Origin: Thermococcus kodakarensis KOD1
GTDB taxonomy: Archaea > Methanobacteriota_B > Thermococci > Thermococcales > Thermococcaceae
Direction: 5' to 3'
Assembly: GCF_000009965.1 (NCBI RefSeq)
Contig: NC_006624.1
Location: 300,001 to 332,000, forward strand
Length of the DNA: 32,000 nt
The translations under genes and the position numbers were made by a program. Below are positions 20,071-20,934 of the stretch, piece by piece. The notes under the pieces were generated by a model. That model saw nothing but the letters and a program-made list of their open reading frames with translations. It made no database searches and was not told the origin of the DNA. Position 1 is the stretch's first letter; each line of letters opens with the position of its first letter.

Positions 20071-20934
20071 TTGCTGGCGGGCCCGGCGGGATTCGAACCC
20101 GCGACCTCCGGCTTAGAAGGCCGTTCCCTTAATGAATTGTGGGCTGCTGAAAGGGCCAATTTTGCAGAATGGCTCTCTGCTGAAGTTGGCGAAGAAACAA
20201 GGAAAGACTACGTTAGAGCGCTCGACAGGCTGTTTGGTCGGCACGTGATAAGAACACTCGAAGATCTAGAGAAGGCCCTCCGCGCTGAAGGATACAAGCG
20301 GAATGTTTCAAAAGCACTCAGAAGGCTCGCAAAATACCTCGTTGAGCGCGACATCATCGACTCCAACAGTTATGAGAAGATCAAGAACATCGCGAAGCTC
20401 AAGGCGACGGGAGTTAGGGAAGTCTTCATCACGAACGAGGATGTGAGGACAGCTTACAATGAGGTACAAAAACGCGGAAAGCCCGCTGAAACACTCTTCC
20501 TCTTGCTGGTGTTCTCTGGCATCAGGCTCAAGCAGGCTGTTGAATTGCTGAGAACCTACGATCCGACAAAGCTTTACCTCATTGATGACAAAGCGGCGCG
20601 GTACCCAATTTTTTCAACAAGCAAAGGCAAGAAGAAGGCCTTTTGGGCTTACGGGCCGCGAGACTTTTTCGAGAGACTCGAACCCCTGGAGGTAAAGTAC
20701 AACACTGCAAAGGATCTCGTAGCTTTTGGAAAAGTCTCGGCTAACAGTATCAGGAAGTGGCATTATACGTTCCTCATTCAGAAAGGCATGCCGTCGGAGA
20801 TTGCAGACTTTATTCAGGGCCGTGTGAGCGGGAGCGTTGGAGCGACACACTACCTAAATAAGGCTGTTTTGGCCGACGAGTGGTATTCTGCAGTCGTGGA
20901 CGATTTAAAGAGGGTTCTGGAGGGTGGAGAATGA
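20071..20934 (+). CDS. int: SSV-type tyrosine integrase, C-terminal catalytic fragment Int(C) (gene split by integration)
   Basis: The first ~17 codons (LAGPAGFEPATSGLEG) are the tRNA complement. Then come core-binding-like helices and catalytic motifs: FSGIRLKQAVEL (Arg), KGKKKAFWAY (Lys hairpin), ANSIRKWHYTF, QGRVSGSVGATHYLN (Tyr). Confidence 0.8.
   Translation: MLAGPAGFEPATSGLEGRSLNELWAAERANFAEWLSAEVGEETRKDYVRALDRLFGRHVIRTLEDLEKALRAEGYKRNVSKALRRLAKYLVERDIIDSNSYEKIKNIAKLKATGVREVFITNEDVRTAYNEVQKRGKPAETLFLLLVFSGIRLKQAVELLRTYDPTKLYLIDDKAARYPIFSTSKGKKKAFWAYGPRDFFERLEPLEVKYNTAKDLVAFGKVSANSIRKWHYTFLIQKGMPSEIADFIQGRVSGSVGATHYLNKAVLADEWYSAVVDDLKRVLEGGE
20075..20123 (-). other. att site: 3' fragment of tRNA-Arg(TCT) from the anticodon arm to CCA; not a complete tRNA
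   Basis: The minus strand reads aCGGC-CTTCTAA-GCCGG-AGGTC-GCGGG-TTCGAAT-CCCGC-CGGGCCC-G-CCA. No D arm or 5' acceptor strand can be formed from 20124-20160. Confidence 0.8.

Follow-up and report, generated by a model that had tools for sequence, protein, structure and literature searches.

A tRNA-Arg(TCT) fragment fused to a split integrase gene as the likely attL junction of TKV2 in Thermococcus kodakarensis KOD1

In a 32,000-nucleotide stretch of the Thermococcus kodakarensis KOD1 chromosome (the window, in whose coordinates positions are given unless stated otherwise), the final 49 nucleotides (nt) of a gene for tRNA-Arg(TCT) run directly into an open reading frame (ORF), TK0381, that encodes most of a tyrosine recombinase. 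This arrangement is almost certainly attL, the left attachment (att) junction of TKV2, a member of the pT26-2 plasmid family that has integrated into the chromosome. The integrase gene (int) would have been cut in two by integration, leaving its C-terminal piece, Int(C), at this junction and its N-terminal piece, Int(N), at the other. The following features lie at the junction:

19246 to 20074, no strand assigned: chromosomal flank outside the element, gene-less, 43-46% G+C in 1-kb windows, with short palindromic repeats
20045 to 20068, minus strand: hairpin of 8 bp with an 8-nt loop, 6 nt past the tRNA 3' end, read as the native tRNA-Arg(TCT) trailer
20071 to 20934, plus strand: Int(C) (TK0381), 287 codons, the C-terminal piece of a split, putatively SSV/pT26-2-type tyrosine integrase
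20075 to 20123, minus strand: attL core, the 3' 49 nt of tRNA-Arg(TCT) (tRNA positions 29-77 including CCA), read as the chromosomal original left after integration

The tRNA-Arg fragment

The plus-strand letters of 20075-20123 are TGGCGGGCCCGGCGGGATTCGAACCCGCGACCTCCGGCTTAGAAGGCCG. Their reverse complement comprises four bases of the anticodon-stem 5' strand (the first base is absent), the loop CTTCTAA, the 3' strand of the stem, the variable loop, the T arm, the 3' acceptor strand, the discriminator, and CCA. This 49-mer occurs once in the window, against zero occurrences expected from 100 shuffles, and the 32-kb window holds no second att copy even when three mismatches are allowed. In a scan of one genome per species, the identical 49-mer was found in 21 Thermococcus contigs, in all of which (21/21) it adjoins the same ~28-nt tRNA 5' half (GCGCCCTaTCCTGCTAGGCTACGGGCCC). 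These contigs come from genomes other than KOD1 and carry empty sites and foreign Int(N) junctions; the KOD1 partner is absent from them. Because ARAGORN places the 49-mer at nt 29-77 of a 77-nt tRNA-Arg(TCT) in each of the five contigs checked out of the 21, as it does in a contig from a metagenome-assembled genome (MAG; L037), the segment at 20075-20123 represents the last 49 nt of this tRNA. The 49-mer is likewise part of tRNA-Arg(TCT) in three T. kodakarensis contigs. Among the viral contigs scanned, none matched either att or the 3' end of Int(N).

The rest of the tRNA gene is missing from the junction. The 5' half is absent beyond 20123, where the next base gives an A.G mismatch at the outermost anticodon-stem pair, and neither ARAGORN nor Rfam, permissive threshold included, calls a complete tRNA at 20075-20123; the sole tRNA that they report in the window is a tRNA-Thr at 7263-7339. 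The initial annotation had described the minus strand from 20123 to 20075 as a tRNA-Arg(TCT) 3' fragment with no 5' half to its right and with pairing lost at the outermost anticodon-stem base. That description holds, with the same 49-mer found inside intact tRNA-Arg(TCT) elsewhere, and the complete tRNA that had been named as its possible refutation is called by neither program.

The Int(C) open reading frame

TKV2 has been described as TK0381-TK0421, with TK0381 a predicted integrase that is transcribed (PMC8155482), and on this ground we equate the ORF at 20071-20934 with TK0381. Residues 117-278 of Int(C) match Pfam PF16795 (Archaeal phage integrase) over all 161 positions of the profile (E 4.8e-61; score 205.8 bits, cutoff 27), and a profile of Int(C) homologues matches the catalytic domain of the SSV1 integrase (3UXU, 3VCF, 4DKS) with E ~1e-11. 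The arginine of GIRL, the arginine of IRKW, and the tyrosine of HY line up with the SSV1 Int structures, and 16 aligned homologues all keep R152 (GIRL), K188, R228 (IRKW), and H260-Y261; the choice of catalytic lysine is inferred. The domain match and the aligned catalytic R, R, and Y uphold the tyrosine-recombinase identity initially proposed for this ORF. Its assignment as a putative SSV-type ('suicidal', type I) integrase of the Int-pT26-2 clade is also supported. Among 77 homologues, the nearest named relatives come from Thermococcus sp. JCM 11816 (91% identity, a shorter call), T. gammatolerans (75%), and pT26-2 (67%).

Codons 2-18 of Int(C) derive from att, and the peptide that att encodes, AGPAGFEPATSGLEG, is conserved across the 16 aligned homologues. 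Intact relatives such as pT26-2 Int carry ~45-90 extra residues at the N terminus, which identifies the Int(C) ORF as a truncated integrase. The truncation is smaller than first thought: the catalytic part to which the ORF had been ascribed is present, but ~100 residues before it are also kept, and only ~71 N-terminal codons are lost. Similarly, the ORF had been said to start inside the tRNA fragment; it does read through the fragment, but the TTG at 20071 sits 4 nt outside the repeat. We rejected this TTG as the true translation start, as it is merely the first start codon past the last in-frame stop.

The other half of the integrase

The partner junction is found in three contigs of Logan read assemblies from T. 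kodakarensis runs (L043, L045, and L046). Read in order, they carry TK0576 (P0108 = BAD84765.1) followed by Int(N), an identical copy of the 49 nt, the 5' half of the tRNA, and an AT-rich tRNA promoter region upstream that includes TTATAAAA. On this junction ARAGORN calls a tRNA-Arg(tct). TK0576 lies in a second element, TKV3, described as TK0575-TK0614 with PCNA2 as TK0582 (PMC8155482); L043 encodes a PCNA homologue six genes from TK0576, which fits that numbering. Int(N) comprises 71 codons and has a basic stretch and the motif HLYLDEEVVGGL...LLREHLEKV in common with pT26-2 Int. The two junctions, compared using these three contigs and one further contig (L001, discussed below), are identical from exactly 20075 to exactly 20123, and since identity starts and ends at these bases, the 49 nt form an att core with fixed boundaries.

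Joined in silico, Int(N), att, and Int(C) yield a single open frame of 357 codons, whose product is 67% identical to pT26-2 t26-1p over residues 28-357; its N-terminal domain gives only sub-threshold matches to ribbon-helix-helix antitoxins (BrnA, CcdA). The same N-side layout recurs in other genomes, in which Int(N) ORFs ending AGPAGFEPATSGLEGRRPILLGYGP run into intact tRNA-Arg. A protein search with Int(N) returned relatives at no more than 84% identity, the KOD1 copy not among them. What the initial annotation had anticipated from one junction is thus found at the other: a second copy of the 49 nt exists in the same organism, the missing Int(N) reads into an intact tRNA-Arg(TCT), and the rejoined halves align with the pT26-2 integrase.

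A related element with an unsplit int gene is present in two further contigs (L040, positions 1-6299, and L041; Logan SRR23823804 and SRR23823809). Its integrase is ~90% identical at the protein level, and the int gene is preceded by neighbors resembling those on the TKV3 side (an AF_0843-like protein of 117 aa and an MJECL33 domain). It is related to the Arg-targeting element and is either unintegrated or placed differently.

The integrated element

To the right of the junction, 12 ORFs of the window (20071-31693) are collinear with pT26-2 at 37-76% identity (tblastn); their counterparts are t26-1p to -8p (some small ORFs excepted), -10p, -11p, -13p, and -14p. Beyond TK0381, the homologues are as follows:

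21514-21702, 21845-22021, and 22018-22371, plus strand: small homologues of t26-2p, t26-3p, and t26-4p, 64-76% identical by tblastn and in the same order
22376-24262, plus strand: homologue of t26-5p by tblastn, a large secreted or membrane protein, core gene of the pT26-2 family
24267-26405, plus strand: homologue of t26-6p by tblastn, a large secreted or membrane protein of 712 aa, core gene
26414 to 30096, plus strand: homologues of t26-7p, -8p, -10p, -11p, and -13p, core genes, 42-75% identical and collinear
30230 to 31693, plus strand: HerA/DUF87-type ATPase, homologue of t26-14p by pT26-2 homology

The 712-aa protein matches Pfam PF22092, PF22265, and PF20984 (T26-6p domains) with E values of 1e-59 to 1e-73. 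Collinearity of the 12 ORFs, the T26-6p domains, and the location of att inside the pT26-2 int gene together argue that the element is an integrated plasmid of the pT26-2 family.

A TKV2 gene 6 kb past the right end of the window corresponds to BAD84593.1 of KOD1. Walking rightward did not reach the right end of TKV2, all contigs ending ~249 nt past TK0404. One TKV2 gene beyond the window differs by sample, forming a single 323-aa ORF in L003 (2938-3908) versus ORFs of 66 and 243 aa in L004 (2935-3906); this is probably a frameshift polymorphism between laboratory strains.

The chromosomal side of the junction

The arms of the hairpin just outside the tRNA 3' end are CAAACTTC (20045-20052) and GAAGTTTG (20061-20068). 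A near-identical hairpin stands at the same distance from intact tRNA-Arg(TCT) in six contigs, five of which (L021, L009, L010, L013, and L027; the sixth is L011) are empty sites with the native hairpin. Compensatory changes occur in two of the eight pairs, and the paired cells amount to 90.6%, in what is a small sample. In addition, ~300 nt of the flank beside att are homologous (67% over 314 nt) to the region downstream of the intact tRNA-Arg in MAG contig L021. Recurrence of the hairpin and of these ~300 nt beside intact tRNA-Arg genes elsewhere marks the left flank as the original tRNA trailer, the role that the hairpin had been given at the outset. Synteny extends no further: TK0379 and TK0380 have none with the tRNA-Arg loci of other genomes, to which only the tRNA, the hairpin, and the ~300-nt trailer are common.

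The AT-rich flank between 19235 and 20044 also contains several short palindromes of one type: AACGCCCGAAGGGCGTT at 19396-19412; CTTTGATGAAACTTTGC at 19491-19507, which recurs in inverted form at 19782-19798; GAAACTTTGC..GCAAAGTTTC at 19770-19798; and GACGCCCGTAGGGCGTC at 19912-19928. Short sequences like these recur near the tRNA-Arg loci of other Thermococcus contigs. A 60-nt direct repeat (19235-19294 and 19873-19932) is 77% identical. Contigs that run from the flank through att into Int(C) begin, in many samples, exactly at 19876, within TATTTTTAATTT, the sole exception being L042 (19864). These fixed contig ends, like that at ~38,977 in window-extended coordinates (the end of L003 and the start of L047), suggest coverage drop-outs or repeats at AT-rich sites.

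Integration and inversion

Activity in vitro is shown only for the 67%-identical Int-pT26-2, which needs no helper proteins to carry out integration, excision, and inversion on tRNA-Arg(TCT) att substrates (PMC7253208). We envisage that a free circular pT26-2-like element would have carried one integrase gene, with attP inside its coding sequence after ~71 codons, and that recombination by the integrase between attP and an identical 49-bp stretch, at the chromosomal tRNA-Arg(TCT) gene's 3' end, would have linearized the element within its own int gene. The Int(C) end would then keep the old tRNA 3' part and its trailer hairpin, abutting TK0381, whose frame heads into the element; at the opposite end, Int(N) would read into a tRNA-Arg rebuilt from the element-borne att. 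What is observed is the sequence of each junction, the exact repeat of 49 bp, an uninterrupted ORF on rejoining, and the homology to pT26-2; the steps up to tRNA rebuilding are deduced from this anatomy and from Int-pT26-2 biochemistry, with the recombination chemistry itself taken from the literature.

The literature points to a further step, in which homologous recombination between TKV2 and TKV3, whose backbones share ~9 kb at 96% identity in opposite orientation, would have inverted the segment between them. The partner element, TKV3, sits in tRNA-Glu, and the inversion would have separated the two Arg junctions. Published coordinates are 320,075-347,187 for TKV2 and 499,284-526,865 for TKV3, and attL2 was found to be identical to attL3 with the N and C halves mismatched, for which the authors invoke an inversion (Badel 2019, PMC6972569). 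Chromosome-contact maps document that TKV2 and TKV3 share 9 kb of inverted homology at 96% identity and that both orientations coexist in cultures (PMC11840125), and rearrangements at the TKV2/TKV3 sites have been described (Gehring 2017, PMC5663688).

The partner att adjoins TK0576, at TKV3's left end; published coordinates, the order of locus tags, and the short read assemblies suggest that it would lie ~179 kb away in inverted orientation. The distance and orientation follow from the locus tags, which rise away from the tRNA. This place agrees with the published TKV2/TKV3 inversion. It also bears on the initial annotation, which had placed an intact tRNA-Arg(TCT) with the 49 nt, preceded by Int(N), 10-40 kb downstream in direct orientation. 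The tRNA and the Int(N) exist, but the placement fails for the reference genome, plausibly as a result of recombination between TKV2 and TKV3. In the arrangement that the reference shows, TKV2 could not simply excise, because its ends do not match.

Several points weigh against our account of the junction as the left end of TKV2 with an inverted partner. The 179-kb distance and the inverted orientation do not come from one contiguous sequence; all contigs stop near 38,977 in window-extended coordinates, short of the right end of TKV2 (~47,187); and that 20075 in the window is 320,075 in the genome we infer from matching numbers. As regards the two matching att sites expected of a pT26-2-family element, the window's 12 kb of element hold no second Arg att, and the matching Arg att is linked to TKV3 genes. 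The mismatched ends of TKV2 are a secondary rearrangement and no argument against membership in the family.

Rejoined contigs and alternative readings

Two contigs join Int(N), att, and Int(C) directly: L001 (1-1522; run DRR165551) and L002 (1-1449; run DRR794413, and also a second sample). Both contigs, which compare with 20075-21362 of the window, are 100% identical to the two KOD1 halves and carry the open 357-codon frame. They raise the question of whether the integrase gene is dead at all: Int(N)-att-Int(C) could re-form in cultures, either in a circle excised after back-inversion or through a site-specific inversion of 179 kb, restoring an intact gene. Besides the rejoined junction in three read assemblies, the transcription of TK0381 (PMC8155482) and the ability of Int-pT26-2 to excise and invert unaided in vitro (PMC7253208) speak for such a revival. 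We nevertheless consider it unlikely.

The Logan assemblies were presumably built with 31-mers; with words of that length, a 49-bp repeat is unresolvable by their sequence alone. Contigs crossing att exist for three of the four flank combinations, leading from the chromosomal flank to Int(C), from Int(N) to the tRNA, and from Int(N) to Int(C), and the short side branches all end at fixed AT-rich sites, 199 and 234 nt to the left of att and 109 nt away on the tRNA side. Such fixed ends fit the removal of side branches during assembly, which would make a chimeric path. The reciprocal junction, in which the native flank passes through att into the tRNA 5' half, was not found; a 45-aa ORF (19979-20116) expected in that empty-site junction is not on record; and there is no known source of active integrase in the cell. 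A search of the literature for the run accessions DRR165551 and DRR794413 returned nothing. That L001 and L002 are real, with Arg att sites inverted 179 kb apart (or standing as direct repeats after back-inversion) still recombining in laboratory cultures, thus strikes us as quite improbable. If it were true, two 'suicide' pseudogenes would give back an intact integrase gene by recombination, and a source of integrase would be implied, such as the 287-aa product of TK0381, which keeps the whole catalytic domain and those preceding it and is transcribed.

TKV2 could alternatively be a simple intact element, excisable as a unit, with Int(N) and an intact tRNA-Arg(TCT) lying 10-40 kb downstream in direct orientation. 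This is the usual layout of SSV-type integrations (PMC7253208), and the opposite TKV2-TKV3 orientation reported for part of the chromosome copies would restore it. Several observations leave it only a slim chance: in T. kodakarensis assemblies, Int(N) and the intact tRNA occur together with TK0576 and with genes of TKV3, that for the PCNA homologue included, and not with TKV2 genes; the TKV2 ends were reported to be mismatched, and the N and C frames are unfit for TKV2 and TKV3 as annotated (Badel 2019, PMC6972569); and no second att lies in the part of the element that the window covers. Finally, there might be no junction at all, an ORF overlapping by chance a split tRNA or a working tRNA gene whose intron is unusual. 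This reading was rejected as having virtually no likelihood, since nothing but the tRNA-like 3' part favors it, whereas ARAGORN and Rfam call no tRNA here, integrase-coding sequence conserved across homologues follows the fragment, and the same organism has a complete tRNA-Arg(TCT) with the same 49 nt elsewhere.

Other features of the window

Farther to the left lies the following gene:

16251-16979, minus strand: free serine kinase, TK0378, 242 aa, 100% identical to PDB 5X0B

The free serine kinase of T. kodakarensis is known to be TK0378 (PMC5120207). Between TK0378 and the next gene, the C/D box small RNA sR14 (Rfam RF01145, 52.7 bits) is found at 16134-16188 on the minus strand. A 147-codon ORF on the plus strand (7262-7705) runs antisense through the intact tRNA-Thr(CGT) on the minus strand (7263-7339), and its start, MEPGPGFEPGT, resembles the att-encoded peptides of integrases. 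No integrase similarity follows this peptide, and the ORF is probably spurious. The neighboring region at 7.4-8.5 kb has a lower G+C content (45-49%).

Relation to known systems

The junction belongs to a locus that is already in the literature: TKV2, its split integrase, and the mix-up of att sites between TKV2 and TKV3 have been published (Fukui 2005; Badel 2019, 2020; Gehring 2017). As a discovery it is therefore of small value, but it provides a useful validation, in that a suicidal-integrase junction was recognized to the base from raw sequence. It also illustrates that a search for a second att 10-40 kb away can fail at a true junction once related elements have recombined. The sole point of research value here is whether the two halves rejoin in vivo, which bears on how self-destroying integrases persist.

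The closest comparison is with the TKV2 and TKV3 elements of KOD1 themselves (Fukui 2005; Badel 2019, PMC6972569). This is the very same locus, att starting at the published left border of TKV2, and there is no difference from the published element; what the present analysis contributes is no more than the rejoined ORF and each junction's sequence written out, from public read assemblies.

Next come pT26-2 from Thermococcus sp. 26/2, with its integrase t26-1p, and TGV1 from T. gammatolerans, which have the same target, tRNA-Arg(TCT), and carry attP inside int (PMC7253208). The TKV2 integrase is 67% identical to that of pT26-2 and 75% identical to that of TGV1. In pT26-2, 45 of the 49 att bases lie within its own int gene, at 207-251, so that att identity ends 4 nt earlier than in TKV2, and att is read in another frame, giving GGPGGIRTRDLRL versus AGPAGFEPATSGLEG in TKV2. 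Moreover, pT26-2 is a free plasmid, whereas TKV2 is integrated and rearranged.

The integrase of Sulfolobus spindle-shaped virus 1 (SSV1; 3UXU, 3VCF, 4DKS), founding member of the archaeal 'suicidal' type I enzymes, shares the catalytic fold family, PF16795, with TKV2. The two systems are alike in having attP in the int ORF, in targeting the 3' part of a tRNA-Arg, and in splitting int into Int(N) and Int(C) on integration (PMC7253208). They differ in sequence, the similarity being low and restricted to the catalytic domain, in host phylum, and in the nature of the element, SSV1 being a fusellovirus and TKV2 a plasmid-like element of the pT26-2 family.

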